Shown here in pieces: positions 3,253 to 27,459 of a DNA stretch of 28,254 nucleotides. Origin of the DNA: Candidatus Cloacimonadota bacterium (GTDB lineage: Bacteria; Cloacimonadota; Cloacimonadia; JGIOTU-2); assembly GCA_014384665.1 (NCBI GenBank), contig JACNFI010000095.1, forward strand, positions 1-28,254, in the 5' to 3' direction. Position 1 is the first letter of the stretch. Each line of letters starts with the position of its first letter. Both the position numbers and the translations under genes were made by a program. The notes under the pieces were generated by a model. The model worked only from the letters and a program-made list of their open reading frames with translations. It had not been told where the DNA came from and made no database searches.

Positions 3253-3912
3253 TTACCATAGCTTTTTCTCTTTGCCATTCATTAACCTTTTTATATTCTC
3301 TTTATGACGAAAAATAATTAAAATCATAATAAAAGCTGTCAATATTAAAAAAGGAAGCTCGTCAAAATTTGGTATGTTTTTTATTAATTCTGTGCCGAAA
3401 AATGTTATTACTGCAATCATAGATGCAAGAGATACATATCTAAAAATAATTAGTATTATTACAAAAGGAATTAAAGCATAAATAACAGGAACAGGAATTA
3501 TGTTTATAAAAGCACCGGCTCCAGTCGCAACACCTTTACCACCTTTGAACTTTAAAAAAATAGGAAATATATGACCTAACACTACAGAAATTCCAACTAT
3601 AATAATCAAAATTTGAAAAGTTTGAGTTCCTTTAATATTATTAAAGACATTTAAAATTGAAATATTGAATATATTCGTTGGACTTTCAAGAATACAGCGT
3701 CCAATTTGAACTGCAAAAAATCCTTTTAAAAAATCAAAAATAAGAGAGATGATACCCGGAATTACACCAATTACTCTAAATACATTGGTTGCACCAATAT
3801 TTTTACTTCCATAATTCCTGATATCAATTTTTTTAAGTATTTTCCCAAGAATAAAACCACTCGGTATAGCACCAAGTAGATAAGCAATTATGATTGCAAT
3901 AATAAATTTCAA
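3253..3912 (-). CDS. plsY: glycerol-3-phosphate acyltransferase PlsY (acyl-phosphate dependent)
   Basis: The 219-aa polytopic membrane protein has the GSKNIGATNVFR motif characteristic of PlsY/YgiH. It overlaps der by 4 nt, a conserved der-plsY linkage. Confidence 0.85.
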   Translation of the reverse strand: MKFIIAIIIAYLLGAIPSGFILGKILKKIDIRNYGSKNIGATNVFRVIGVIPGIISLIFDFLKGFFAVQIGRCILESPTNIFNISILNVFNNIKGTQTFQILIIIVGISVVLGHIFPIFLKFKGGKGVATGAGAFINIIPVPVIYALIPFVIILIIFRYVSLASMIAVITFFGTELIKNIPNFDELPFLILTAFIMILIIFRHKENIKRLMNGKEKKLW

Positions 3913-5231
3913 TTTTTTCTTCCTTTATATTTAAATCTTAATGTAACACCTTCAAATTTATATATTTCTCTTATTTGGTTATGAATATATCGTTTATAAT
4001 TTTCAGTAATTAATTTTGGATTATTAACACTAAACACAAATGTTGGAGGATGAACATTTGCTTCTGTGCAATAATAAAATTTAACATTTTTTTTTGATGG
4101 ATGGTGAGGAGCATATTTCTGAAATACTGATTGAAAAAATTGATTTAGTTTGCTGGTTGGAATTCTTAAGTTACTTTGTTCTTCAACATATAATATAAGT
4201 TCCAGAAGTTTATTGACTCTTTTTCCTGTTAATGCAGAAATAAATATAATTGGAGCATAGTTAATGAATCCCATTTCTTCCCTGATTTTTTGAATATATT
4301 TACTGGTTGTATCATTCTCTTTTGCTATAAGGTCCCATTTATTCACCACAATAATAATATCCTTATATTGGGATTGTGTATATTCTACTATTCGTTTATC
4401 TTGTAAAGAAATTTCTTCTTGGGCATCAAGCAATACTAAAACTATATCTGATGAGTTTATGCTTCGTAAACTACGTAGATTACTAAAATATTCAATGCCA
4501 AATTTCACTTTGCTCTTTTTCCGAAGTCCTGCAGTATCAATTATTGTCATAGGTCTTTCTTTATAGTTAAAATTGAGGTGTATAGAATCTCGTGTGGTTC
4601 CTGGAATTTCAGTAACAATTACTGCATTTTGACCAATGATTTTATTAACTAATGAAGACTTTCCTACATTTTGTTTTCCAACAACTGCGATTTTTATTGA
4701 TTCTTTATTTAATATATCATATTCAGATTTACCTGGTGGAATTTTTTCAACTACATTATCTAACAATTCACCAAAATTTCTTCCACTAATTGCAGAGATT
4801 CCAATTGGCTCTCCAAGACCTAAATTCAAGAAATCAAATAAATATAACTCATCTTTTTGATTATCTACTTTGTTTAAAACGAAAATTACTTTATCAAGGA
4901 TGGGAAATAATTTCTTTGTAATTTGCTCATCTGTTGTAGTTATTACCGTTTTGCAATCAAGAACAAAAATAATAATATCTGCTTCTTGAATTGCTATTTC
5001 TACTTGCAACTGAATTAACTGTTCCATTTCATCAAATGAGTTTGGCACCATCCCACCAGTATCTACAGCTATAAATGAATAACCTGACCATTCAGTTTCT
5101 TGATATTTTCTGTCTCTCGTAACACCGGATTCTTTATCAACTATTGCAAGTCTTTTTCGCACCATACGATTAAAAATGGTGGACTTTCCTACATTAGGTC
5201 TTCCGATTATCGCGACTATTGGGATTGACAT
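3909..5231 (-). CDS. der: ribosome-biogenesis GTPase Der (EngA), tandem GTPase domains plus a C-terminal KH-like domain
   Basis: The 440-aa translation has two P-loops (GRPNVGKST and GKQNVGKSS), DTAG/DTGG G3 motifs and NKVD/NKWD G4 motifs. This is the classic double-GTPase architecture. Confidence 0.9.
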   Translation of the reverse strand: MSIPIVAIIGRPNVGKSTIFNRMVRKRLAIVDKESGVTRDRKYQETEWSGYSFIAVDTGGMVPNSFDEMEQLIQLQVEIAIQEADIIIFVLDCKTVITTTDEQITKKLFPILDKVIFVLNKVDNQKDELYLFDFLNLGLGEPIGISAISGRNFGELLDNVVEKIPPGKSEYDILNKESIKIAVVGKQNVGKSSLVNKIIGQNAVIVTEIPGTTRDSIHLNFNYKERPMTIIDTAGLRKKSKVKFGIEYFSNLRSLRSINSSDIVLVLLDAQEEISLQDKRIVEYTQSQYKDIIIVVNKWDLIAKENDTTSKYIQKIREEMGFINYAPIIFISALTGKRVNKLLELILYVEEQSNLRIPTSKLNQFFQSVFQKYAPHHPSKKNVKFYYCTEANVHPPTFVFSVNNPKLITENYKRYIHNQIREIYKFEGVTLRFKYKGRKN

Positions 5232-6281: not shown

Positions 6282-6881
6282 ATGTATACCACCAAGTCAG
6301 GTTTCTCCCCAGTTGATTTTAATCCTAAAACTTTTATTACTGTTCCTAATATTGTAACAATCACTCGTTTGCTAATATTACCTTTTATTCTTATCTTGCT
6401 ATTTCAAAACAAAAATATATGGGCATTTTTACTTATTATTTTTGCTGGTCTTACTGATATTTTAGATGGATTCCTTGCAAAAATTCTTAACCAAGCTACT
6501 GCTGTAGGGAAGATTATTGATCCATTTGTTGATAAAATATTTGCTCTTACAATATTTGTATTTTTACTTTTTTATAGAAATTTTCCCCTCTGGGCTTTTA
6601 TTACTATACTTTTATTTGAAATCTTAATTCTAACTGGAGGTTACATATTGGCTATTAAATTTAGGATAGTACCAAGTTCAAATATTTATGGTAAAATTGC
6701 AGCTTCTTTTATAAGTGTTTCAATTTGGCTTTATGTTATTGATATTAATTTTTTTAAAAGAGATATATCATTAAAAATTTCTTTACAAAAAATTGTGTTG
6801 ATATTAGGAATAGTAATGTTATTTTTTGCTATAATATCGTATGCTATTAGAGCAAATGCAAAAATAAAAAAATTTAATTAA
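6282..6881 (+). CDS. pgsA: CDP-alcohol phosphatidyltransferase (CDP-diacylglycerol--glycerol-3-phosphate 3-phosphatidyltransferase-like)
   Basis: The 199-aa membrane protein has the CDP-OH phosphotransferase signature D-G-x2-A-R…G-x3-D-x3-D, read as DILDGFLAKILNQATAVGKIIDPFVDKI. Its start lies 1 nt after the nadK stop. Confidence 0.75.
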   Translation: MYTTKSGFSPVDFNPKTFITVPNIVTITRLLILPFILILLFQNKNIWAFLLIIFAGLTDILDGFLAKILNQATAVGKIIDPFVDKIFALTIFVFLLFYRNFPLWAFITILLFEILILTGGYILAIKFRIVPSSNIYGKIAASFISVSIWLYVIDINFFKRDISLKISLQKIVLILGIVMLFFAIISYAIRANAKIKKFN

Positions 6882-6925
6882 GAATTTGATTGTAGATTAA
6901 TTAAGATTTCAATTTAGGAGATAAA

Positions 6926-7876
6926 ATGGTTTCATTATATCTAACCAGAAGAATTAAAAATTTATTAATAATAGGTGTTGTGTTTGTATCATTAGTTTTT
7001 GCACTTAAATTATCAAATTTTATGGAAGTCGTTCGTAAACCTTCAAATGATATGGGAAGTTCTCCAGAAAAAGCCGAGAAACTTTTTAATGATTTCAATT
7101 ATGATACTAAATTAAAATTGAAATTTGTTTCAAAAGATATTCAGGAAATTAAAAATAATGTTAATAAAATCCTATCTAATAATAACCTGAATGTATTATA
7201 TTCAATTAGAACTGGTAGTAATATCACAAAATTAGTTGAATTGCCATCTAAGAATTATAAAGAACTTCTATCTCCAATAATGAATTTGCCAAGTTTGGTT
7301 TCTGATGAATTGATAAAATCTCCAGAATCAGTTTCAATTGAAGGATTAAAGAGAAGATTACAAATTGCTGAAAAGAAAAGACAGGAAATACAGGAAAGAA
7401 TCGCTAATTCAAGAACTTACGATGTTAGATTAATGAATGCTCAAAAAAAACTGGATGAAACAATAGATGCTCTCTCAAAAGAATTAGAAGAAAAAGAGGA
7501 AAGAGAAAACTATATATTAGCAAAAATTGATATATCAAATGTAGTATTAAAAGGTGATATTGTTAAAAGTTCATTTAGGACATTTATTGGCACTTTTTTT
7601 CTATCAATTATTGTAATTTCTGTAGCATTAGTTATCATCTATTTTTTTATTGTAGGTTTTACAAAATTATTTGCCATACTTGGAATAAAAACTCGTCATG
7701 GATCCTCAAAATATGGTTCGTATGCAAGTGGTAAATATGGATATGGAAGATATTATAGTGGTTATGGTGGAGAAAAAAGAATTAAAAGAAAGTATATAAG
7801 AAGACCGGCTCATAAGGAAAAAGACTCAGAATCTCCAAAAACTAATAACGAAAGTAATTCTAATGGGAATAATTAG
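6926..7876 (+). CDS. hypothetical membrane-anchored coiled-coil protein with Gly/Tyr-rich basic C-terminal tail
   Basis: The 316-aa translation has an N-terminal TM/signal segment, a central charged coiled-coil (KRRLQIAEKKRQEIQERI…KELEEKEERE) and a second TM segment. The low-complexity tail reads GSSKYGSYASGKYGYGRYYSGYGGEKRIKRKYIRR. An RBS (TAGGAGATAAA) precedes the ATG. The family is not recognised. Confidence 0.6.
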   Translation: MVSLYLTRRIKNLLIIGVVFVSLVFALKLSNFMEVVRKPSNDMGSSPEKAEKLFNDFNYDTKLKLKFVSKDIQEIKNNVNKILSNNNLNVLYSIRTGSNITKLVELPSKNYKELLSPIMNLPSLVSDELIKSPESVSIEGLKRRLQIAEKKRQEIQERIANSRTYDVRLMNAQKKLDETIDALSKELEEKEERENYILAKIDISNVVLKGDIVKSSFRTFIGTFFLSIIVISVALVIIYFFIVGFTKLFAILGIKTRHGSSKYGSYASGKYGYGRYYSGYGGEKRIKRKYIRRPAHKEKDSESPKTNNESNSNGNN

Positions 7877-8314: not shown

Positions 8315-8515
8315 ATGAGTTCACTATAAAAACCCGTCCGTCTGGGCGCCGAGACCGACGAAACACACGAAATACTCGAAAATGGTTTGTGTAAATTCAG
8401 CCCGTCTGCCCGTCTCCCGATATATCGGGAGACGAGACAGAGGCGCCGAGCCTGATAATATACGCATGTATTTTTCGCGTATTTCGTGGGAGATACCTTT
8501 TTATAGTGAACTCAT
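8315..8515. mobile_element. MITE-like 201-bp nested palindromic element (E2) with perfect 18-bp terminal inverted repeats
   Basis: The TIRs are ATGAGTTCACTATAAAAA (8315-8332) and TTTTTATAGTGAACTCAT (8498-8515). Internal features are the inverted repeats CACGAAATAC/GTATTTCGTG, a central perfect hairpin CGTCTCCCGATATATCGGGAGACG, and duplicated GGCGCCGAG cores. It is GC-rich relative to its surroundings and shares a 21-nt core with E1. Confidence 0.6.
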
Positions 8516-8550: not shown

Positions 8551-8808
8551 ATGCCAGAACATAAATCTTGTAAAAAAAGACTTCGTTCGGATGAAAAAAA
8601 AAGAGTTAGAAATAAATATGTAAAGAAAAGCATTAATACAATGATCAAAAAGCTTAAGAAAATTTCTAATAAAACTGAAATGGAAAAAATGTTACCAAAG
8701 ATCTATTCTTTACTTGATAAGGCAGTAAAAAAAGGTGTAATACACAAAAATAATGCTAATCGAAGAAAGTCTCGTTTAGCAAATTTTGTAAGCAAATTTG
8801 AGTTTTAA
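8551..8808 (+). CDS. rpsT: 30S ribosomal protein S20
   Basis: The 85-aa basic protein starts with SCKKRLRSDEKKRVRNK and ends with HKNNANRRKSRLANFV, matching S20 N- and C-terminal signatures. GGAAGGAGAATA precedes the ATG. Confidence 0.85.
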   Translation: MPEHKSCKKRLRSDEKKRVRNKYVKKSINTMIKKLKKISNKTEMEKMLPKIYSLLDKAVKKGVIHKNNANRRKSRLANFVSKFEF

Positions 8809-13070: not shown

Positions 13071-14711
13071 ATGAAACAAAAATATGAAGAAATCGTGAAC
13101 AAGGTTGTCAAAAAACATCCAGAGAGAAAAGAAAAATTTATCTCCGGTTCTTCAGAGATTGTTAAACGGCTCTATACACAGGACGATATTTCTGCGATGG
13201 ACTCTGATGAAGATATTGGCTATCCAGGATTTTATCCATATACCCGTGGGGTTCAGCCAACAATGTATCGTGGTCGCCTCTGGACAATGCGGCAGTATGC
13301 TGGCTTTGGTACCGCTGAAGAATCTAATAAGAGATATAAATATCTTCTTTCGCAAGGACAAACAGGACTTTCCGTTGCATTTGACCTTTGTACACAACTC
13401 GGCTATGATTCTGACCATCCGATGAGCAAAGGTGAAGTTGGCAAAGTAGGTGTGGCAATTGACACACTTGCTGATATGGAAACCCTTTTTGATGGAATTC
13501 CATTGGATAAGGTTTCAACTTCAATGACGATAAATGCTCCTGCTACAATTCTATTAGCAATGTATATTGCAGTTGCAGAAAAACAAAAAGTTCCAGTAAA
13601 TAAACTCAGAGGAACTATTCAAAATGATATTCTAAAGGAATATACAGCAAGAGGAACATACATTTTTCCTCCGAAACCTTCAATGCGTCTGACTACTGAT
13701 ATTTTCCAATATTGTTCGGAAAATATTCCGAATTGGAACACCATTTCTGTTTCTGGATATCATATTCGCGAAGCAGGGGCAACAGCAGCACAGGAAGTTG
13801 CTTTCACACTTTCAGATGGTATTGCTTATGTTGAAGCTGCGATAAATGCTGGATTAGATGTAGATGATTTTGCTCCACGAATATCTTTCTTCTTTAATGC
13901 ACATAATGACCTTCTTGAAGAAGTAGGAAAATTTAGGGCAGCAAGAAGATTATGGGCAAAAATTATGAAAGAGCGTTTCAATGCAAAAAATCTGAAATCT
14001 TTAATGCTCCGATTTCATACTCAAACTGCTGGTTCTACACTTACAGCACAACAATTAGATAATAATATTGTTCGTGTTGCAATTCAAACTCTGGCTGCTA
14101 TACTTGGAGGAACTCAATCTTTACATACAAATTCCAGAGATGAAGCTTTAGCTCTTCCAAATGAGGATTCAGTAAGAACTGCTCTCCGAACTCAGCAAAT
14201 CGTTGCTTATGAAAGTGGAGTTGCTAATACCATTGACCCATTAGCCGGTTCTTATTATATTGAAAGTATAACTAATAAGATTGAGAAAAAAGCAATGGAT
14301 TATATAAAAAAAATTGATGAGTTAGGCGGTATGATTGAAGCTATTGAAAAGGGTTATGTTCAAAAACAGATTCAGGATAGTGCATATAAATATCAAAAAC
14401 AAATTGAGAATGATGAAAGAATTATTGTAGGTGTTAATAAATTCGTTTCAAATGAAAAGCCTGAACAAGATATTTTAAAAGTAAATGAGCAAATTGAAAA
14501 ATATCAAATTGAAAAATTGAAAGAGGTAAAAAAACAAAGAGATAATGATAAAGTAAAAAGGTCCTTAGAAAGAATAAGACAAGATGCTAAATCATCAAAT
14601 AATCTTATACCTGCATTTCTTGACGCAATTAAAACATATACTACACTTGGAGAAATATGTGATGTTTTACGAAATGAATTTGGTGAGTATAAAGAAAAAA
14701 ATGTTTTCTAA
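13071..14711 (+). CDS. acyl-CoA (methylmalonyl-CoA-type) mutase, large-subunit catalytic TIM-barrel domain only, no B12-binding domain
   Basis: The 546-aa translation has the conserved N-terminal [50 protein letters not shown] block of MCM-alpha/Icm large subunits. The ORF ends before any Rossmann-like cobalamin-binding domain (no DxHxxG). This is the split-mutase architecture. Confidence 0.8.
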
Positions 14712-14788
14712 AACAAAGAAAACACAACAAAGAAGAGATAAGCCATTAACTTACCCTAAACATCTCGAATAGAAATATTAAAATGAAA

Positions 14789-14819
14789 AGTTAGTGAGTG
14801 TTCGTGTAAGTTCGTGGCG
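14789..14819 (+). promoter_or_regulatory. conserved leader motif AGTTAGTGaGTGTTCGTGtAAGTTcGTGGCG, 22 nt upstream of the SPFH gene start
   Basis: It is near-identical to 27367-27452, which lies upstream of the 27473 membrane-protein gene. That copy carries an extra 55-bp CCCCGTG hairpin inserted between the two halves. In both cases AGGAGG and the ATG follow directly. Confidence 0.45.
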
Positions 14820-14840
14820 AAATAACTCATAGGAGGAAAA

Positions 14841-15740
14841 ATGGGTATAATAGTCATCATTATAATTCTGATTGTGCTATATTGGCAGGCAAAGAGTATT
14901 TTCCATGATAAAGCTAACCTGGCAAAAACTATTATTATTTTGCTAATTATAATTGGAGTTTTATCACAAACGATTAAAGTTGTAGAACCAGGTAAAGTAA
15001 AAGTGCAGGTGCTGTTCGGAAAGGTGCAAAAAAGGATTTTGCACAGCGGACTTAATTTTGTAAATCCGTTAATAACTATGCGTACTATGAGTGTTCGCAC
15101 AGAAGCTTATACAATGAGTGCTGCACGATATGAAGGTAGAGTCCGAGGCGACGATGCAATAAAAGCATTAACTTCTGATGGTATCATACTGCCTATGGAT
15201 ATTACATGCTTGTTTCATTTAATAGCTGATAAAGCACCAGAGGTATATGAAAAAATTGGCTATGATTATGAATCAAAGATTATCCGACCTGAACTCAAAA
15301 CGATTATCCGACAAGTTATTAGTAACTTTAAAATGGAGCAGGTATATTCTTCTGCAAGAGATACTATTGCTCTAAGAATGAAAGAAGAAGCTCATAAGAA
15401 ATTATTTCCAAGAGGAATATTTATTGAGGATGTTCTTTTAAGAAATGTTACTCTTCCAAAACAGGTAGAAACAGCAATAAATGCAAAAAAGACTGAGCAA
15501 CAAAATTTTGAAAAGATGCTCTATACGCTACAGAAAGAAGGAAAGGAAAAAGAGAGAAAGATTATCGAAGCAGAGGGTATCAAAATTGCCAATCAAACTA
15601 TTGCAGAAGGTCTAACAGAAAGTTATCTTAGATGGTATCAAATTGATATGATGAAAAAATTGATTGATAGCCCGAATAACACGATTATCTTTATTCCAAT
15701 GGGACAGGAGATTACACCGATAATTAATACAGGGAAATAA
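14841..15740 (+). CDS. SPFH/band-7 (stomatin/prohibitin-like) membrane protein
   Basis: The 299-aa translation has an N-terminal TM segment. The SPFH core (KVVEPGKVKVQVLFGKVQ…, IRPELKTIIRQVISNFKMEQVYSSARDTIALRMKEEAHKKL) and a C-terminal coiled-coil are typical of the family. An RBS (AGGAGGAAAAA) precedes the ATG. Confidence 0.8.
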   Translation: MGIIVIIIILIVLYWQAKSIFHDKANLAKTIIILLIIIGVLSQTIKVVEPGKVKVQVLFGKVQKRILHSGLNFVNPLITMRTMSVRTEAYTMSAARYEGRVRGDDAIKALTSDGIILPMDITCLFHLIADKAPEVYEKIGYDYESKIIRPELKTIIRQVISNFKMEQVYSSARDTIALRMKEEAHKKLFPRGIFIEDVLLRNVTLPKQVETAINAKKTEQQNFEKMLYTLQKEGKEKERKIIEAEGIKIANQTIAEGLTESYLRWYQIDMMKKLIDSPNNTIIFIPMGQEITPIINTGK

Positions 15741-15850
15741 GGAAATAGAGGTATAAGGGAAAAATCAAAAGGCAAAATGTAAAAGGCAAAATTAAAAGTT
15801 ATAGGGCAGAAATTTTTAATATATTGAAATTTTATTCTTTCCCTGTAAAT
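15632..15850 (+). repeat. direct repeat copy A: last 35 codons of the SPFH gene plus about 110 bp downstream; partner at 16637-16857
   Basis: 15632-15850 and 16637-16857 align end to end at roughly 85% identity. Copy B still encodes WYQIDMMKKLIDSPNNTIIFIPRGQDITPIINTGK*, against native …FIPMGQEITPIINTGK*. Confidence 0.8.
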
Positions 15851-15903
15851 TTATTGCATAGGAATTTCCTTTTTTTCTGACACATAAGTTTTTGGTAGAT
15901 AAC

Positions 15904-15927
15904 TCGTAACCCGTAACCCGTAACTCG
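15904..15927. repeat. tandem heptamer CGTAACC ×3 (TCGTAACCCGTAACCCGTAACTCG)
   Basis: Seen directly in the sequence, in the region carried in with the bioY insert. Confidence 0.6.
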
Positions 15928-15954
15928 AATAGCATTTTTTATCAGTGAATATCT

Positions 15955-16010
15955 GTGTTTACCCCGTGTAATATAAAACGCTTCACTATTACACGGGGTG
16001 AATCTGTGGC
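15955..16010 (+). promoter_or_regulatory. GC-rich hairpin GTGTTTACCCCGTGTAATAT-N13-TATTACACGGGGTGAATCTGTGGC, about 30 nt upstream of bioY; possible operator or hairpin-repeat family member
   Basis: It is a 12-bp perfect stem. The flanking ACGGGGTGAAnnnGTGGC motif recurs at 27249-27266 (reverse orientation) and 27436-27452. Confidence 0.4.
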
Positions 16011-16039
16011 TAATATTTTCTCGGCGGTGAAAGGAAAAA

Positions 16040-16636
16040 ATGGAAAATCTAAAAAGAATGAACACAATGGCTGAAGCTTGTTTTCCAAGAATTGGAATTT
16101 TGAGCAATCCGATAATTTATAACTTGCTATTGATTTTAGGTGGCAGTCTCTTTATCTCCTTGACCGCACAATTAGCATTTCGTTTGCCTTTTACTCCAGT
16201 GCCAATAACAATGCAGACATTTGGAGTGCTTTTAATTGGACTTACATATGGTAGCAAGAGAGGTGCTTTAACATTGGTTGCATACCTTGCAGAAGGAGCA
16301 ATGGGCTTACCAGTATTTGCGAATGGTGGGTGTGGAATTGCTTACCTTTGCGGTCCCACAGGTGGATATTTGTTTGGATTTGTAGTTGCAGCATTTGTTA
16401 TTGGATACTTGGCAGAAAATGGCTGGGATAGAAAAATGTTGACTGCATTTGCAGCAATGTTGATTGGCACAATTGTTCTATTTGCTTTTGGTTTGCTCGG
16501 GCTGAGCAGATTTGTTGGTGAAGATAAATTATTTGTCGCAGGATTGATTCCGTTCATTCCAGGTGAGATTTTTAAGAGCATTCTTGTGGCTATTTCATTG
16601 CCAACTGCATGGAAGGTTCTCATAAAAAAATTTTAA
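16040..16636 (+). CDS. bioY: biotin transporter BioY (ECF-type S component)
   Basis: The 198-aa polytopic protein has the BioY hallmark PVPITMQTFGVLLIGL and GPTGGYLFGF motifs. A strong RBS (AAAGGAAAAA) precedes the ATG. It is visibly more GC-rich than its neighbours and is flanked by the 15632/16637 direct repeats. Confidence 0.85.
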   Translation: MENLKRMNTMAEACFPRIGILSNPIIYNLLLILGGSLFISLTAQLAFRLPFTPVPITMQTFGVLLIGLTYGSKRGALTLVAYLAEGAMGLPVFANGGCGIAYLCGPTGGYLFGFVVAAFVIGYLAENGWDRKMLTAFAAMLIGTIVLFAFGLLGLSRFVGEDKLFVAGLIPFIPGEIFKSILVAISLPTAWKVLIKKF

Positions 16637-16857
16637 ATGGTACCAAATTGATATGATGAAAAAACTGATTGATAGTCCGAATAATACGATTATCTTTATC
16701 CCGAGGGGACAAGATATTACACCAATAATTAATACTGGAAAGTAGTATATAAAAGGAAATAAGGAGATAGGGATATAAGGATATAAGGCAAAATGTAAAA
16801 GGCAAAAAATTAAGAAGCAGAAATTATTAATATAGAGAAGATTTATTCTTTTACCCT
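16637..16857 (+). repeat. direct repeat copy B (diverged duplicate of the SPFH 3' end plus downstream spacer)
   Basis: See copy A. It includes the in-frame remnant of the 35 C-terminal SPFH codons with its own stop at about 16747-16749. Confidence 0.8.
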
Positions 16858-16880: not shown

Positions 16881-18068
16881 ATGATAAATATGAAAAAGAA
16901 AAAAATTATATTCATTATTGTATTATTCTCTATGTTTTCTACATGCACTTTTTCTTATGCTTTATATGAATTTACTTGTATTTTTACTTTATACAACACT
17001 TCTGCAACCAATTTAGCTTTTGGACTTGATTCTGGTACAGCAAATATCTGGCACAAAAATCCCTTAGATATTTGGAGTAATCCAGCAAAACTTGGGTATT
17101 ATAAAGGATTTGCTTTTGGATACTCACATGATAAATGGTTTGATGATCTTAATTTGGACATTTATCACAACTCATCCTATTTAACATTTGGATGGAAGGG
17201 TTTAGGCATTTTACTGCCTTCTCTCAATAATTCAAGCAAATTTGGAACCACTATGGATTATGGTGAACAAGAAGTATATGATGCACATGGAAATCTTTTG
17301 AGGAAGTTTAATTCCTATGAGACCTGCAGTCAATTTGCTTTTGGAATTAATTGTCTTGAATTCATTAATTATTTTTCTAAAGAAAATCAATTATTCAATA
17401 ATCTGCGAAAATACTCGGAACTTTCATTAGGATTAAGTATTGATTATATACGAAGTAATCTGCTGCCTTATATTTCTGATTCCCTGAAAATAAATAAAGG
17501 AACTGGGTTATCAAATAATATTGGCGCACTAATAAAAATAACTCCTTTAAATATATATGATAGTGGTATAAGGCTTGATATTACTGCAGGCATAAATATA
17601 GTTAACATATTTAAATCAGACATGACTTATAAATACAATAATGGAGATAAGGAGAAACAACCATTGCCTTATGGTAATAGAACTGGAATCGCTGGAAAAT
17701 TATCATTTATAAATATTAAGAACCTCGCAGATGAATATCCTTTGCTTTTTGATATTTCTAAATATCTTTTATCAATCTATGCAAGTTATGATAATTCTAA
17801 ATATGGTGATAATCCTTCTATCTGGGGTAAAGGAATTGAATTAACTTTGCTTGATATATTTTCTTGGCGATTTGGAGAATGCACAGATAAATATGGACAG
17901 GAGATTGGAGATTGTGAAGGTTGGGGTATTAATCTCAATTACAAAAATATTGTTAGTTTTCAATATAATTATGTTGAGTTTCCTTTAGGAGAGTCGCAAA
18001 CTAAGCAAAAAAAAGAAGATATATCATTTGGTATAGATATAATTAAACTCATAAATGAGTTTAAATAA
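16881..18068 (+). CDS. hypothetical secreted / outer-membrane-like protein
   Basis: The 395-aa translation has an N-terminal signal-like segment (KKKKIIFIIVLFSMFSTCTFSYA). Alternating aromatic/glycine-rich beta-strand-like segments run through the protein. Its family is unknown. The true start may be the second ATG at 16890, which has better spacing to GAGGT. Confidence 0.6.
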   Translation: MINMKKKKIIFIIVLFSMFSTCTFSYALYEFTCIFTLYNTSATNLAFGLDSGTANIWHKNPLDIWSNPAKLGYYKGFAFGYSHDKWFDDLNLDIYHNSSYLTFGWKGLGILLPSLNNSSKFGTTMDYGEQEVYDAHGNLLRKFNSYETCSQFAFGINCLEFINYFSKENQLFNNLRKYSELSLGLSIDYIRSNLLPYISDSLKINKGTGLSNNIGALIKITPLNIYDSGIRLDITAGINIVNIFKSDMTYKYNNGDKEKQPLPYGNRTGIAGKLSFINIKNLADEYPLLFDISKYLLSIYASYDNSKYGDNPSIWGKGIELTLLDIFSWRFGECTDKYGQEIGDCEGWGINLNYKNIVSFQYNYVEFPLGESQTKQKKEDISFGIDIIKLINEFK

Positions 18069-18073
18069 AATCT
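18006..18073 (+). repeat. direct repeat copy A: last about 20 codons of gene 16881-18068 plus 5 nt downstream; partner at 18511-18577
   Basis: CAAAAAAAAGAAGATATATCATTTGGTATAGATATAATTAAACTCATAAATGAGTTTAAATAAAATCT matches CAAAAAAAGAATGATCTATCATTTATTATAGACATATTTAAATTCATAAATGAGTTAAAATAAAATCT. Copy B still reads …DLSFIIDIFKFINELK*, against native …DISFGIDIIKLINEFK*. Confidence 0.75.
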
Positions 18074-18153
18074 AAAGTTATTATAGTTTTTTATTTTCTA
18101 TGAAATATGCCATTTATATTTTTACATTAGAATTCTAATAAGTGAGATAAATT

Positions 18154-18456
18154 ATGAAAACAGTCTCAAAGAGTACCACCTTTAAGAATTTATTAAAAGA
18201 TTTGGCAATTACAGATGTGTCAAGGATAATAAGGGATACTTTGCTCACCGAAATTCTTTGCAAGATTTCAGATTTTTCTGATGAAGTAAAACATTTTGAG
18301 GAAAAATATGGCAAAAATCTAAGTGACTTCATTAAAGAATATGAATCTAATGATGAAGATTTTGAAAAATATGATGACCTGATGGCTTGGGAATTTGCTC
18401 AACAAGGAAAACAATATTGGGAAACAAAGCTAAAGGAAGCCAAGAGTGTTTTATAA
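18154..18456 (+). CDS. hypothetical 100-aa acidic cytoplasmic protein (cargo of the second tail-duplication cassette)
   Basis: An intact ORF lying between the two copies of the 18006/18511 repeat. It has no recognisable catalytic motif and is rich in charged residues (…DFSDEVKHFEEKYG…EDFEKYDDLMAWEFAQQGKQYW). It may be a small antitoxin-like or regulatory protein, but this is unverified. Confidence 0.45.
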   Translation: MKTVSKSTTFKNLLKDLAITDVSRIIRDTLLTEILCKISDFSDEVKHFEEKYGKNLSDFIKEYESNDEDFEKYDDLMAWEFAQQGKQYWETKLKEAKSVL

Positions 18457-18510
18457 AATAATTGAAGAGTACGCAAATATTATTCACAGATATTCTGTAA
18501 AAAACAAAAA

Positions 18511-18577
18511 CAAAAAAAGAATGATCTATCATTTATTATAGACATATTTAAATTCATAAATGAGTTAAAATAAAATC
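18511..18577 (+). repeat. direct repeat copy B (diverged duplicate of the 3' end of gene 16881-18068)
   Basis: See copy A at 18006-18073; identity is roughly 80%. Confidence 0.75.
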
Positions 18578-18617
18578 TCTGCGTTCTCTGCGTCTTCGCG
18601 GTGAGTGAAAGGAACAA

Positions 18618-19847
18618 GTGGGCAAAACTATAGTTGAAAAAATCATTCAATCACATTCAGATGAAAAAGTAAAAGCAGGCAAGATTGTCTGGATGAAGTT
18701 AGATATCAGAACTGCACGAGATTTCGGCGGTCCAAATGTAGTAAAAAATCTTGAGAAATACTATCCAGATGAACGATTACCAGATGTAGAAAATATACTT
18801 TTTACTTTTGATTGCGTTGTACCTGCAAAAACCATTCCTTATGCAAACAATCAGCAAATCTGCCGTGAATTTGCAAAAAAGCAAGGTATAAGAGTTTTTG
18901 ATGTTGATGCTGGAATTGGAACTCATATTTTAATGGAAAAAGGATTTGCACGACCGGGCAGAATTCTTGTAGGTACAGATAGTCATTTTAACATTCTAGG
19001 TGCTGTTGGAGCTTTCGGACAGGGGATGGGGGATCAGGATATTGCTTTTACTTTTTGCACAGGAAAAACCTGGTTTGAAGTACCAGAAACAATCAAAATC
19101 AATCTAAAAGGAAGATTTACTTTTCCTACAACTGGTAAAGATTTAGTTCTTTTCGTTTTGCGAAAATTAGGAAGTAAAGGTGCATTGGGGAAATGTATTG
19201 AATATTATGGAGAATGCCTTCAAGATTTGAGTTTCGCAGAATATATTACTCTATGCAGTATGATGACAGAGATGGGCGGTATCGTAGCTTTTCCTTATCC
19301 AAATGAAAATGTAACAAATTGGCTTATTAAAAGAACAGGAGAAAATCCAGAATTTATTTTTGCTGATAGAGATGCAAAATATTGCAATGAAATTGAAATT
19401 GATGTTACTGATTTACAACCGCAAATTGCCTGTCCGCCAAAACCAGATAATGTTAAAGAGGTTTCAAGGTTAAAATGTTTGAAGGTTAATTCAGTTTTTG
19501 TTGGCTCTTGCACAAATGGTAGATTTGAAGATATGCTGCAAGTCTCTGAAATCCTGAAAGGAAACAAGGTTGCACAAGGAGTTATGTTGAGAATTGTTCC
19601 TGCAACAAAAGAAGTTTATGGTCAAATGCTTAAAGAAGGATTAATCCAGGTTCTCTATGATGCAGGTGCAATTATTTCAAACCCAGGATGTGGTGGATGT
19701 GCATCTGGTCAAATTGGTATGACTGGCAAAAGAGAAGTGCAGATTTCAACTGCTAATCGCAATTTTTTAGGAAAACAGGGAGACGGAGATACCTATCTTG
19801 CCAGTCCTGTTACTGCAGCTTTTGCAGCCCTAAAGGGAAAATTGTAG
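18618..19847 (+). CDS. leuC: 3-isopropylmalate dehydratase / homoaconitase-type large subunit (short aconitase-family LeuC)
   Basis: The 409-aa translation has a GTG start after AAAGGAACAA. It has aconitase-family motifs, including the cysteine ligands of VGSCTNGR and GCGGCASGQ. Its short size fits the archaeal-type LeuC/HACN. Confidence 0.85.
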   Translation: MGKTIVEKIIQSHSDEKVKAGKIVWMKLDIRTARDFGGPNVVKNLEKYYPDERLPDVENILFTFDCVVPAKTIPYANNQQICREFAKKQGIRVFDVDAGIGTHILMEKGFARPGRILVGTDSHFNILGAVGAFGQGMGDQDIAFTFCTGKTWFEVPETIKINLKGRFTFPTTGKDLVLFVLRKLGSKGALGKCIEYYGECLQDLSFAEYITLCSMMTEMGGIVAFPYPNENVTNWLIKRTGENPEFIFADRDAKYCNEIEIDVTDLQPQIACPPKPDNVKEVSRLKCLKVNSVFVGSCTNGRFEDMLQVSEILKGNKVAQGVMLRIVPATKEVYGQMLKEGLIQVLYDAGAIISNPGCGGCASGQIGMTGKREVQISTANRNFLGKQGDGDTYLASPVTAAFAALKGKL

Positions 19848-21093: not shown

Positions 21094-21600
21094 ATGCAGA
21101 AAAATATGAAACTAAACGGCAAAATATGGTTGATTACTAACAATAATAATCTCATAAACGATATTGACACAGATATGATTTTCCACAATAGATATTTAGC
21201 AATCACAGATATAAATCAGATGGGACAATATGCATTTGATAATCTTAATGGATGGAAAGATTTTGCAAAGGAAAGTGAGAAAGGTGATATCATCATTGCT
21301 GGGAAAAATTTTGGTTCTGGTTCATCCAGACAGCAAGCAGTTGATTGCTTTATCTCGCTTGGAATTCAAGCAATTTTGGCTGAATCTTTTGGTGCTATCT
21401 ACAAACGAAATGCAATAAATTCAGGATTACCAATCTTACAAATTAAAAAAATAAATTTACAAAAATTTAATCAACGAGAAAAAATTGTAATTAATTTAGT
21501 TGATGGCTCAACTAATTCGGAATATTTAGAAATAGAGCCTTTTTCAAAGGTTCAGCTGGATATTTATCAATCAGGAAATTTATTCTCCTATGGAAAGTAA
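21094..21600 (+). CDS. leuD: 3-isopropylmalate dehydratase small subunit (aconitase swivel domain, LeuD-like)
   Basis: The 168-aa translation has the GKNFGSGSSRQQA…AESFGAIYKRNAIN motifs typical of LeuD. An alternative start at 21106 (MKLNGKIW…) is possible. Confidence 0.85.
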   Translation: MQKNMKLNGKIWLITNNNNLINDIDTDMIFHNRYLAITDINQMGQYAFDNLNGWKDFAKESEKGDIIIAGKNFGSGSSRQQAVDCFISLGIQAILAESFGAIYKRNAINSGLPILQIKKINLQKFNQREKIVINLVDGSTNSEYLEIEPFSKVQLDIYQSGNLFSYGK

Positions 21601-21659
21601 CGCAATTGTCTCAATTGCGACACAAACCCCCGATTTCTCGGGGGGGACGATTGTGTTAC
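21596..21659 (+). repeat. composite hairpin H1 directly after the leuD stop: GTAAC-[CGCAATTG tct CAATTGCG]-[ACACAA a CCCCCGA tttc TCGGGGG ggacga TTGTGT]-TAC
   Basis: Seen directly in the sequence. The same structure recurs at 21992-22040, but there it lacks the inner CCCCCGA…TCGGGGG mini-hairpin. It could act as a terminator or recombination site, or it may be a nested hairpin insertion. Confidence 0.65.
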
Positions 21660-21662
21660 AAA

Positions 21663-21716
21663 ATTCTATTTGATATTCATCAAGCAGGAAATTTGTTCAC
21701 TTATGGATGAAAGAAT
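21663..21716 (+). repeat. degenerate duplicate of the leuD 3' tail (encodes FDIHQAGNLFTYG*, against native LDIYQSGNLFSYGK*)
   Basis: It aligns to 21556-21600 at roughly 75% identity. A second, more degenerate copy lies at 22041-22078. Confidence 0.65.
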
Positions 21717-21738
21717 TTTTTAAAGGAGGTTTTTAGAA

Positions 21739-21969
21739 ATGTTAAATACAGTTAGAGGTATATATGAAAATGGGGTAATAAAACCTTTTGAAAAAGTAAG
21801 AGATAAAGAAAGGTCAGAGGGCATAATTATCTTTTTAGATACTGCCAAAGAGAAGAAATCAGCTTTCTTTTCCTCGGCCGGCTCATGGAAAGATGTAGAT
21901 ACCGAGGTCTTGAAAAAACAAATATACGAAAGCAGAAAAATTTCTAATAGAAGAAAAATTCAGCTATGA
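21739..21969 (+). CDS. DUF104 (AF2212-like) family putative antitoxin, orphan
   Basis: The 76-aa translation starts MLNTVRGIYENGVIKPFEKV…EGIIIF, matching the conserved N-terminus of the DUF104 antitoxin-like family that is usually paired with PIN/VapC toxins. The RBS is AAAGGAGG. No adjacent PIN-domain ORF is present. Confidence 0.5.
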   Translation: MLNTVRGIYENGVIKPFEKVRDKERSEGIIIFLDTAKEKKSAFFSSAGSWKDVDTEVLKKQIYESRKISNRRKIQL

Positions 21970-21978
21970 TTTCATTCC

Positions 21979-22078
21979 TTCTCCTATGGAAAGTAACGCA
22001 ATTGTCTCAATTGCGACACAATCGGAGACGATTGTGTTACAAAATCCAGATGATTTATCAGGCAGGAAATTTGTTTAA
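21979..22078 (+). repeat. second copy of the cassette-boundary module: leuD tail fragment (TTCTCCTATGGAAAGTAA), hairpin H3 (21992-22040), then a degenerate tail
   Basis: TTCTCCTATGGAAAGTAACGCAATTGTCTCAATTGCGACACAA is identical to 21580-21622. H3 is the simple form …ACACAATCG gaga CGATTGTGT TAC. The following 22041-22078 parallels 21660-21716. An ATG of a cargo gene follows each module. Confidence 0.7.
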
Positions 22079-22080
22079 AT

Positions 22081-22418
22081 TTGGGAAAATATAGTATGAT
22101 TAGTAAAGAGCAGATTCATGAAATTGTACAAACTATTGTAAAAGGCTACAATCCAAAGAAAATAATCCTTTTTGGTTCGTATGTTAGTGGAAATCCTTCT
22201 GAAGATAGTGACTTAGACATGTTTCTTGTGAAAGAGAGCAAACTTCCAAGATATAAACGAGCAAGGCAGGTTCATAAATTATTTGACCCCTTGTGCGATG
22301 GATATAATCGTGTACAACACAAATGAAATAAAAAAATGGAAAGATGTCAGAAATTCTTTTGTATACGATGTTCTAAAAAATGGGAAAGTGTTATATGAAC
22401 AAACTGGTTGAAGAGTGG
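22081..22418 (+). pseudogene. mntA: MNT-type (minimal) nucleotidyltransferase antitoxin gene, interrupted by a +1 frameshift
   Basis: The N-terminal 81 aa contain the nucleotidyltransferase motif ILFGSYVSGNPSEDSDLDMFLV (GS…DxD). The frame then ends at 22326. Reading +1 from the CCCC run at about 22288 gives …PCAMDIIVYNTNEIKKWKDVRNSFVYDVLKNGKVLYEQTG*, the canonical MNT C-terminus. The shift sits in a C4 homopolymer, so this is a genuine frameshift or a sequencing error. Confidence 0.65.
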
Positions 22419-22776
22419 ATTCATAAAGCAGAAAATGATTTTTTAGATGCAGAAAATAATTTGAAAAGTCAGCAGATACCTACTGATACAGTCTGTTTTC
22501 ACTGCCAACAAGTAGCAGAAAAATATCTGAAAGCTTACTTGATTTCAAGAAACAAATCCTTTCCCCAAATTCATAATCTCATTCATCTGATGTAATTATG
22601 TAGAGAACTGGACCCAATTTTTTTGAAGTTAAAAGATGAACTAATAATTCTAAATGACTATGCAGTAGAAATTCGCTATCCTGACGACTGGTTGTGAACC
22701 AACCATTGAAGAAGCCAATGAAGCATTGGAATTAGCAAGAAAAGTAAAAGATTTTATATCTATAAAAATAAAATAG
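22380..22776 (+). pseudogene. hepT: HEPN-domain toxin gene (HepT-like), interrupted by two frame changes
   Basis: The first 71 aa (…AENDFLDAENNLKS…CFHCQQVAEKYLKAYLISRN…IHNLIHLM*) form the HEPN N-terminal helices. Downstream in other frames the reading continues ELCRELDPIFLKLKDELIILNDYAVEIRYPDDW (the Rx4-6H-like RYPDD HEPN motif), then EPTIEEANEALELARKVKDFISIKIK*. The start overlaps the end of the MNT gene, as in mntA-hepT pairs. Confidence 0.6.
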
Positions 22777-25638: not shown

Positions 25639-26271
25639 ATGATAATGAAAAGAACAATACCTTTATTAATAGTAATGACTTTGGGATTCCTCTTTGTTGC
25701 ACATGTATTCATCCCTAGTAAGATATCACAGGATTTTTTTGACTGGTTTTTGAAATGGACAAAAGTAATCGGACCCTTTGCTGTTGTTTTAGGTGTTATG
25801 AGTCTTGTAATGGTGCATTCAACAAAAATAAGACGGAAAGCACACAATTGGGGATATAGCATAGTTGCATTAGTTGCTTTGGCTTTAACAACTGCAACAG
25901 GATTTATCTGGGGTATTCAGGAAGGAACTCCATATATGTGGATTTTCAGGAATTTCAATGTTCCACTCGGCGCCACTATGTTCTCATTACTTGCTTTCTA
26001 TATTGCTTCTGCAGCCTATAAAGCATTCCGAGCTCGGTCAGTTGAAGCTACTGTGCTCTTAATAGCAGCTATTATTGTTATGCTCGGAAGGGTCTCAATA
26101 GGACATGCTATTAGCCATTGGATTCCTGACATTACTGAGTGGATTTTGAATGTGCCTAATTTAGCTGCAAAAAGGGGAATTACTTTAGGTGTTGGTTTGG
26201 GTATGACAGCCACATCATTAAAAATTATATTGGGAATTGAAAGAACATACCTTGGTGGCGGTAAAGATTAG
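25639..26271 (+). CDS. polytopic inner-membrane protein (about 5-6 TM), unknown family
   Basis: The 210-aa hydrophobic ORF follows the 935-aa gene directly. GGAAAGGAGC precedes it, and the second ATG at 25645 has better RBS spacing. No motif is recognised. Confidence 0.65.
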   Translation: MIMKRTIPLLIVMTLGFLFVAHVFIPSKISQDFFDWFLKWTKVIGPFAVVLGVMSLVMVHSTKIRRKAHNWGYSIVALVALALTTATGFIWGIQEGTPYMWIFRNFNVPLGATMFSLLAFYIASAAYKAFRARSVEATVLLIAAIIVMLGRVSIGHAISHWIPDITEWILNVPNLAAKRGITLGVGLGMTATSLKIILGIERTYLGGGKD

Positions 26272-27248: not shown

Positions 27249-27459
27249 GCCACGAATTCACCCCGTTAGATGCTATTACCCAGTTAGATGATTGCTATTT
27301 AATGGAATGTTATCTAACGGGGCAAGCACTAACTATCACGAACAAAAATTTTATTATATAATAAAGAGTTAGTGCTTGTTCGTGTTTACCCCGTGAAATA
27401 ATGCTTTGCATTAAAATCTCTGATTTTATTTCACGGGGTGAAGTTGGTGGCGGATAATT
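27249..27459. repeat. composite palindromic element bounded by inverted 18-mers GCCACGAATTCACCCCGT / ACGGGGTGAAGTTGGTGGC
   Basis: It contains the hairpin CCCCGTTAGAT…ATCTAACGGGG (27262-27323). It has interleaved inverted repeats AGCACTAACT/AGTTAGTGCT and CACGAACA/TGTTCGTG, with pseudoknot-like topology. It also has the hairpin TTTACCCCGTGAAATAA…TTATTTCACGGGGTG (27385-27440). The 3' half equals the 14789 leader motif plus an inserted hairpin. Confidence 0.6.

Follow-up and report, generated by a model that had tools for sequence, protein, structure and literature searches.

Replacement of the 3′ end of a gene by an incoming element, with direct repeats at its borders, is the classical signature of islands that reside at gene ends. 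In homology-facilitated illegitimate recombination (HFIR), reportedly described originally in Acinetobacter and pneumococcus, recipient DNA next to the homologous anchor is usually deleted or replaced when the illegitimate joint forms. HFIR is an established route for short linear DNA (PMC3240628). The locus considered here shares features with both of these systems and differs from both. It lies in a 28-kb window (the whole stretch of DNA that was analysed, 28,254 nt of contig JACNFI010000095.1) from an uncultured Cloacimonadota genome, the closest public records of which are metagenome-assembled genomes of Cloacimonadota/Cloacimonetes. The window is a housekeeping stretch, in which a bioY gene, encoding the S component of a biotin transporter, stands behind an intact gene of the SPFH/Band 7 family and is enclosed by two diverged copies, A and B, of the end of that gene. 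We consider that this arrangement most likely reflects a natural, integrase-free capture of a one-gene cassette by means of a diverged core-gene ‘handle’, and that such capture has recurred. The parts of the locus are as follows.

14841–15740, + strand: intact SPFH/Band 7 (prohibitin-family) gene, 299 aa (PF01145, 106.9 bits against a cut-off of 23.6)
15633–15850, + strand: copy A, consisting of the SPFH tail (15633–15740) and a purine-rich spacer (15741–15850)
15851–16039, + strand: cassette leader 5′ of bioY, with TAACCCG heptamers, a hairpin, a GGTGAATCTGTGGC motif and a ribosome-binding site; the boundary between the A spacer and the leader reads, for example, CCCTGTAAATTTATTGCATAGGAATTTCC
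15900–15924: heptamer array, TAACCCG × 3.6
15957–16003: hairpin with a 17-bp stem (−24.2 kcal/mol, z = −4.2)
16040–16636, + strand: bioY (biotin transporter S component), 198 aa (PF02632, E = 1e-40)
16631–16637, + strand: putative illegitimate junction between the 3′ end of bioY and about codon 263 of SPFH, an A/T-rich join
16638–16857, + strand: copy B, consisting of an SPFH tail remnant (16638–16745, open frame, stop TAG) and a spacer leading into gene 16881
16881–18068, + strand: gene 16881 (g16881), 395 aa, no Pfam family, N-terminal signal-like segment

A bioY insertion behind the SPFH gene

Copies A and B form direct repeats around 786 bp (15851–16636), and the coding part of copy A is simply the last 35 codons and the stop codon of SPFH. 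When A was compared by blastn with the rest of the window, the sole significant match was 16630–16851 (76.4% identity over 233 columns, E = 5e-48), the next-best match having E = 0.07. Identity reaches 94 of 108 positions in the coding tail and 85% in an ungapped core of 124 nt; in the spacer it is 68% if gaps are counted and 92% if they are not, the difference lying mainly in the number of ATAAGG-type units. The original prediction, which was made from the sequence alone, had placed the repeats at 15632–15850 and 16637–16857 and put their identity at about 85% over the full length, a value that holds for the coding part and is optimistic for the spacer. It had also stated that the second copy still encodes the last 35 SPFH codons followed by the same spacer, and the stop-free translation of B (WYQIDMMKKLIDSPNNTIIFIPRGQDITPIINTGK, then a stop) bears this out; the tandem heptamer, the hairpin and bioY that it had described between the repeats were all three located. 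The longest perfect block shared by A and B is 21 nt (15639–15659, + strand, CAAATTGATATGATGAAAAAA), with its partner in the tail alignment at 16644–16664. A leftward extension of the repeat to 15602/16606, given by local alignment, was rejected as homology, the stretch being the conserved C-terminus of bioY (AWKV), which is also found in the relatives L011 and L015 (related sequences are designated here by L and a number).

Could the arrangement be a chimera of two co-existing strains, created during metagenome assembly? In one assembly, contig L005 begins precisely where copy A ends (15849), a hint of branching in the assembly graph and possibly of a co-existing variant, and A and B share k-mers of 21 and 23 nt. 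These shared k-mers, however, would not join the end of bioY to an SPFH tail. Because five more contigs, derived from separate assemblies or sequencing runs, show the same structure at ≥99.8% identity (three from ENA, with coverages of 41–189×, and two from Logan, which span bioY, copy B and gene 16881), an assembly artefact is unlikely, and we regard a chimera as the least credible of the explanations considered.

Relatives differ in what occupies the slot that separates SPFH from the aconitase-like gene. In L002, L009, L010 and L018, SPFH has one tail and is followed by the spacer and then by a g16881 homolog; this is the empty site that the original prediction had expected, with SPFH running directly into gene 16881. 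In L017, a different spacer precedes the g16881 homolog. In L001/L008 nothing follows SPFH, the stop codon of which overlaps the next start; in L020, L021 and L027 the slot holds a beta-eliminating lyase, as is likely also in L026 and L029, where a contig end intervenes; in L025 it holds a UPF0175/DUF3368 pair; and in L011 the spacer is followed by bioY. L023 and L024 carry in-frame fusions (1748–2965 and 825–2072, respectively) of some 33 codons from the N-terminus of SPFH with the g16881 homolog, the join lying at the signal-peptide region of g16881 and the remaining SPFH being deleted. Because such fusions can only arise from the adjacency of the two genes, SPFH and g16881 were neighbours ancestrally. 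The adjacency occurs in seven relatives, the two fusions included, and the order SPFH and then g16881 is the widespread, ancestral state. Copy B is collinear with L002, L016 and L018 through the spacer to the start of the downstream gene, and its alignment with the four empty-site relatives reaches the start codon of g16881, which is a fast-evolving gene (63–71% aa identity to its homologs). Relative to the common SPFH–spacer–g16881 arrangement, bioY is an insertion.

The same slot has changed between two other lineages. The SPFH genes of L011 and L018 are 97.3% identical, yet one slot holds bioY and the other g16881, and the spacers diverge only in their second half. This contrast indicates a very recent cassette replacement. 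The spacer divergence of this pair (27%) is far above the neutral expectation, given a synonymous divergence (dS) of 0.087.

The spacer behind SPFH is itself a recurrent sequence. It is composed of 8-nt (A/G)ATAAGG repeats and AAGGCAAAA units, and was located in the window at 15741–15850 and 16746–16857, in L002 at 6901–7010, in L016 at 1041–1170 and in L018 at 3413–3540. Where it precedes g16881 it is 84–89% conserved across lineages, and it may be a regulatory region of that gene. A structured RNA was considered and rejected, the folding energy being no better than that of shuffled sequences (z about 0).

Which of the two copies is the resident one? In their sense codons, A and B differ by 11 synonymous and 2 non-synonymous changes (proportions of differing sites, pS = 0.569 and pN = 0.023). 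When a duplication in situ followed by neutral decay of B was simulated, the mean number of amino-acid-changing codons was 8.2, two or fewer arose with P = 3e-4, and a premature stop appeared in B in 40% of the runs. Because the non-synonymous differences are few and decay in situ is rejected, A and B must have diverged inside working SPFH genes of different lineages. The body of the window SPFH gene (codons 1–264) is closest to that of L016 (88.5% nt identity, pS = 0.312). Toward L016, pS is 0.305 for the B tail and 0.579 for the A tail (A against body, Fisher p = 0.038); toward L001, it is 0.731 for the body, 0.672 for B and 0.268 for A (A against body, p = 9e-5). In the coding tail, B shows 9 differences from L016 against 14 from A, and the B spacer is 11–16% diverged from the spacers of L002, L016 and L018, compared with 22–34% for the A spacer. 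Because it is B, and not A, that shares the distances of the SPFH body, we deduced that B is the resident tail and that A arrived with bioY. The support is moderate, as it comes from about 19 synonymous sites, and points to A, the leader and bioY as a probable incoming piece from another Cloacimonadota lineage, with B as the displaced resident tail. The switch of affinity along SPFH falls at the left edge of the repeat, where 14 informative sites permit no finer placement. Copy B carries three private changes, one of which turns M to R in the otherwise invariant IPMGQ; this change fits a recent loss of function. The original prediction had proposed that a copy of the SPFH tail travelled with the cassette, and had read the divergence of the copies as a sign either of a different lineage or of an old event. 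The carried tail and the different lineage are upheld by these comparisons, with the refinement that the incoming copy is A, which is attached to SPFH, and that the truncated B is the resident one.

These data bear on two further explanations. The first is an origin in situ, in which the two copies were identical at birth, having arisen through an insertion that duplicated a long stretch of its target or through tandem duplication on the spot, and diverged later while B decayed. As described below, three events of the same geometry occur in the window with hairpins near each, which could suggest a replication-linked mechanism, and in the third event identity between the repeats reaches 96% over 48 nt. 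However, an origin in situ is contradicted by the simulation of neutral decay, by the closer match of B to L016 than to A and by the excess divergence of the L011 and L018 spacers, and we consider it very unlikely. The second is the reverse polarity, in which SPFH–spacer–bioY was the original order and copy B with gene 16881 (perhaps also the 100-aa gene behind it) came in as a fragment that started inside a donor SPFH gene. In its favour, L011 has SPFH–spacer–bioY as a stand-alone arrangement, and g16881 evolves fast. Against this, B is the copy that shares the synonymous distances of the SPFH body to L016 and L001, and the adjacency of SPFH and g16881 is so widespread that a loss followed by a regain would be needed. 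We therefore regard the reverse polarity as improbable, less so than an origin in situ.

Probable route of integration and signs of its recurrence

By what route might the piece have entered? We considered that a piece of about 1 kb from another Cloacimonadota lineage was probably integrated by homologous recombination, whether Campbell-type or one-sided, and most simply by a Campbell-type single crossover. In the donor lineage, bioY would have stood directly behind SPFH and its spacer, and the piece would have comprised the SPFH tail, the spacer, the hairpin leader and bioY. The recipient locus before the event would have consisted of SPFH, the spacer and gene 16881. In the simplest topology, the piece would have been a small circle, its ends joined at the A/T-rich TTTTAAATGG, where the end of bioY meets SPFH codon 263. 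One crossover would have taken place at the left edge of the shared segment, plausibly within the 21-nt identity block. SPFH would thereby have been completed by the donor tail A, and the resident tail and spacer B would have been moved 3′ of bioY, still joined to gene 16881.

In the product, the gene, made complete by a donor tail, is followed by the donor spacer and the cargo, and then by the tail, the spacer and the downstream gene of the resident locus. The SPFH reading frame is intact after the event, with a C-terminus identical to the family consensus (..IPMGQEITPIINTGK), and the neighbouring genes and upstream regions are undamaged. Because nothing was lost and the homology segment was duplicated from the same left boundary, a Campbell-type event is the most likely one. 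The original prediction had proposed integrative or Campbell-type capture; the insertion, the tail that it carried and the class of mechanism are retained here, and from the product we infer the circular intermediate, the Campbell route itself, the precise position of the crossover and the donor’s identity.

Several observations weigh against this course of events. The circular intermediate is hypothetical, and recombination in 21 nt of identity within a 220-nt handle that is 13–30% diverged would be rare. Three events within 6.5 kb are not explained by simple chance capture, about 60 kb of relatives showing none. The assignment of A and B to lineages depends on about 19 synonymous sites in a tail that is conserved in all lineages, and the contrast toward L016 reaches only p = 0.038. 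Furthermore, L001, with the tail closest to A, has neither spacer nor bioY; the closest relative, L016, is a 1.3-kb contig in which the sequence past the spacer matches neither arrangement; and no donor, that is, no database sequence combining an A-type tail with the spacer and the leader, was found. A capped number of scans of genomes and metagenomes with SPFH returned only five relatives, and among the SPFH homologs at 67–91% identity none was L001-like save L001 itself.

A linear fragment might have been captured instead, by HFIR or by a replicative template switch: one end would have paired in the SPFH tail and the 3′ end of bioY would have been joined by microhomology just 5′ of the anchor, with no circle. 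The stop codon TAA of bioY (16634–16636) sits on the A/T-rich join, and the junction with SPFH shows patchy similarity (TGCATGGAAGGTTCT..TTTTAAATGG against TGCAGAAGGTCT..CTTAGATGG, with cTTAAATGG in SPFH). The junction of the second event described below likewise lies in an A-run, and the evidence that A is xenologous fits such a capture equally well. On the other hand, A and B both retain about 25 nt lying leftward of the presumed crossover, and the recipient has lost no DNA, an outcome for which either a circular donor or a further copying step is needed. We regard the capture of a linear fragment as possible and as distinctly less probable than the Campbell-type event.

Site-specific integration is another route that could be envisaged, with a tyrosine or serine recombinase acting in trans and with A and B as the attL and attR sites of a miniature integrative element. 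The replacement of a 3′ end by sequence borne on an element, together with direct repeats, does resemble islands at gene ends. However, no integrase, transposase or recombinase domain was found by Pfam in the window ORFs scanned (all gene candidates of at least 100 aa and the small genes of the three insertions), three different genes were targeted, the repeats are 70–220 nt long and diverged throughout, and no conserved motif common to the cassette ends was seen by inspection. This route seems to us very improbable, marginally more so than an origin in situ. Simple transposition, which the original prediction had dismissed, is likewise unsupported: transposon features are lacking as well as an integrase. 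With regard to transposons, insertion sequences and miniature inverted-repeat transposable elements, no inverted-repeat pair brackets 15851–16636, and the duplication is about 218 nt long and diverged, not 2–14 bp.

The original prediction had missed a recurrence: a repeat search of the whole window revealed two more gene-tail duplications around small genes, within 6.5 kb, and L011 provides a further case. The genes and events concerned are the following.

13071–14711: methylmalonyl-CoA mutase, upstream of SPFH
18003–18578, + strand: second event, in which the last 22 codons of g16881 and 5 nt (18003–18073) are repeated at 18508–18578 (85–88% identity) around a 100-aa ORF
18154–18456: the 100-aa ORF, with a weak DUF7342 match
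18618–19847: aconitase-like large subunit, followed by an M23 peptidase gene
21094–21600: aconitase-like small subunit
21583–22096, + strand: third event, in which the aconitase small-subunit tail and a hairpin (21583–21697) are repeated at 21979–22075 around an AF2212-like gene
21739–21969: the AF2212-like gene, followed by remnants of MNT (nucleotidyltransferase) and HEPN genes

In the second event, the downstream copy keeps the ancestral junction to the upstream region of the aconitase-like gene, as seen in L018 and L010, which are empty sites. The third event lies in a more complex region: within 21562–22096 the aconitase small-subunit tail occurs four times, in full or in part (21562–21600, 21675–21706, 21974–22000 and 22053–22096), and a hairpin occurs twice (21601–21659 and 22001–22040). 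The remnant at 22053–22096, which differs hardly at all from the true tail of L001, lies against MNT, and in L001, L002 and L011 the small-subunit tail runs straight into MNT. This remnant is the resident tail, and the region 21562–22096 looks like a series of insertions stacked at one gene end. In L011 (6719–6916), two copies (93% identical) of the first 60 nt of the aconitase-like gene enclose a segment of about 78 nt, which holds a hairpin of the same family as that at 21601–21659 of the window, in inverted orientation. With the exception of L011, no tail duplication was found in about 60 kb of relatives. The bioY insertion thus appears to be one instance of a repeated process in this lineage.

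A more speculative possibility, which we hold only tentatively, is that these are self-propagating, integrase-free ‘homology-handle’ cassettes. The units would be single genes or hairpins of 0.1–1 kb (bioY, the AF2212-like gene, the 100-aa ORF or bare hairpin elements) that pass from lineage to lineage, each with the end of a core gene; a circle would be freed by recombination of the flanking repeats, and the RecA of a host would re-insert it at the same gene end in any relative, and arrays such as that at 21562–22096 would build up.

Neighbouring parts of the window also vary among relatives. The interval between the mutase gene and SPFH (14712–14840) is without the small B12-binding-domain gene that lies there in L002, L009, L011, L017, L018 and L026; this gene is likewise absent in L001 and L023, and it is found 5′ of SPFH in L020/L021. 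In L011, an additional Cofac_haem_bdg gene separates the B12-binding gene from SPFH. Behind the third event (22081–22700), MNT appears to be broken into ORFs of 81 and 42 aa, and HEPN into 71 aa followed by stops; both are probably pseudogenes, their counterparts in L011 having been called as 106 and 126 aa. At 8330–8480 there is a GC-rich, strongly palindromic intergenic block with repeats of the CCCGTC/GACGGG type and a CCCGATATATCGGG core, which is conspicuous in a window of 31% GC and precedes an 85-aa lysine/arginine-rich ORF (8551–8808).

bioY, its leader and base composition

The product of bioY matches PF02632 with 139.4 bits against a cut-off of 25, its residues 51–192 spanning profile positions 1–140 of 140. 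By family membership, the gene would probably give the cell biotin uptake. Such uptake would suit an organism with a methylmalonyl-CoA pathway, in which biotin-dependent enzymes take part. No bioM or bioN (ABC ATPase and ECF T-component domains) was found in the window ORFs scanned, and bioY is solitary in the window. Its closest homologs are 99%, 79% and 78% identical, followed by others at ≤60%, and no relatives on viral contigs, which would have pointed to a phage origin, were found. The homolog at 78% aa identity, the closest on a long contig, occupies the same SPFH-downstream slot in L011, and the divergence of bioY between the window and L011 is similar to that of the neighbouring genes (78% for the mutase, 81% for SPFH and 77% for the aconitase small subunit). 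By these comparisons, bioY is not alien to this clade. The C-termini of the protein vary, ending in LIKKF in the window, RS in L011 and INKKNNTQ in L015. The bioY of L015 is the 79% homolog, a second bioY of about 2× coverage and different context, and comes from the same sample as L005.

The original prediction had described the insert as visibly more GC-rich than its surroundings. Its GC content is indeed elevated (0.382, whereas the window averages 0.313; among stretches of 786 nt it ranks in the top 1.4%), and bioY (0.387) is the GC-richest gene of the window, but the excess is about 2 s.d. and not a strong anomaly. Much of it lies at codon position 2 (0.417), a value equalled by a gene without a Pfam match at 25639–26271; the third-position GC of bioY is 0.296 against 0.208 ± 0.049. 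In L011, bioY has a GC content of 0.374 and is no outlier among its neighbours. The excess is therefore modest and largely one of amino-acid composition, and it gives no evidence of a distant donor, pointing weakly and at most to a slightly GC-richer relative. The implied compositionally foreign donor is accordingly not supported, considering also that the bioY of L011 stands in the same slot with housekeeping-like divergence and that the hairpin of the leader belongs to a family that is native to this genome and has a member in L011.

This hairpin family has the form GTTTACCCCGTG(T/A)AATA...TATT(A/T)CACGGGGTGAA, flanked by GTGAAT..GTGG motifs. Its members, at 15957–16003 and 27384–27443 in the window and at 6640–6709 in L011, all fold well (z = −3.3 to −5.8), and the genes whose start codons lie shortly 3′ of them are unrelated. 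The stem differs between the window and L011 by one compensatory exchange of T:A for A:T, and counterparts of the hairpin element and of the last 40 nt or so 5′ of bioY flank bioY in L011. The family looks like a REP-like (repetitive extragenic palindromic) or promoter-proximal element. A biotin operator of the BirA/bioO type was rejected, as the arms are 16–17 nt long and the hairpin recurs 5′ of an unrelated gene (27384–27443) and 3′ of bioY in L011. An integron attC site was rejected too, since the arms (GTTTACCCCGTGTAATA / TATTACACGGGGTGAA) are, by inspection, without RYYYAAC/GTTRRRY cores. A search of the whole window against Rfam at gathering thresholds gave no match, the hairpin family included.

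A second motif recurs just 5′ of start codons, reading ..C(G/T)GTGG(C/T)GA.. or GGTGA and then GAAAGGAA. It was located at 14790–14840, 16010–16039 and 18579–18617 of the window, at 6830–6861 of L011 and at 4900–4947 of L018, and may be a lineage-specific promoter or leader element.

Significance and comparison with known systems

The biology of the locus itself is ordinary, a biotin transporter having been added to a variable slot. If the capture described here is true, genes have been gained repeatedly in nature without the machinery of mobile elements, and a short, diverged core-gene end suffices to direct a cassette of one gene into the corresponding slot of a relative, leaving both neighbours intact. 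Such a process would help to account for the spread of small accessory genes, such as those of a vitamin transporter or of the toxin-antitoxin-like kind, between uncultured anaerobes of low GC content in which recognisable mobile elements are few. Its simple signature can be sought across whole genomes: first a complete gene, next one small gene, and then a truncated copy of the first gene’s own end that differs mainly at synonymous sites.

How does the locus compare with the systems already described? Integron cassettes resemble it, in that small single genes, including those of the toxin-antitoxin type, are added one by one, with hairpins beside the cassettes; here, however, there is no intI in the window ORFs scanned and no attI, and the cassette ends are copies of the end of a neighbouring gene instead of attC sites. 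Islands inserted by an integrase at the 3′ ends of tRNA or protein genes share the replacement 3′ end, the displaced original, the flanking repeats and the stacking seen at 21562–22096. In contrast to those islands, our locus has no integrase, the cargo is a single gene, three unrelated genes are targeted (SPFH, g16881 and the aconitase small subunit), and the repeats are long and diverged, whereas theirs are a short identical core. The slot also recalls flexible genomic islands (PMC4033161), as it lies between conserved core genes and its content varies in close relatives (nothing, g16881, bioY, a beta-eliminating lyase or a toxin-antitoxin pair). Clean double crossovers leave no duplication, however, whereas the change here is additive and has left a xenologous gene tail.

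In the case of HFIR, the likeness consists of one short homologous anchor, a second joint at a putative A/T-rich microhomology and a donor that is a diverged relative; the difference is that the anchor region is duplicated here, with the resident tail and spacer fully retained as copy B. The proposed event works like Campbell insertion-duplication in the laboratory. Unlike the laboratory system, the event proposed here is natural, with a cargo of about 0.8 kb that has no replicon or vector, a handle of about 220 nt that is 13–30% diverged and a circle deduced from the product. As in that system, repeats of the homology segment flank the insert, and the empty site is recovered if the insert is taken out along with one of the copies; the target gene is left whole, since the fragment includes its 3′ end; no site-specific recombinase is needed; and, with moderate support, the two repeat copies come from two molecules, the donor and the recipient.

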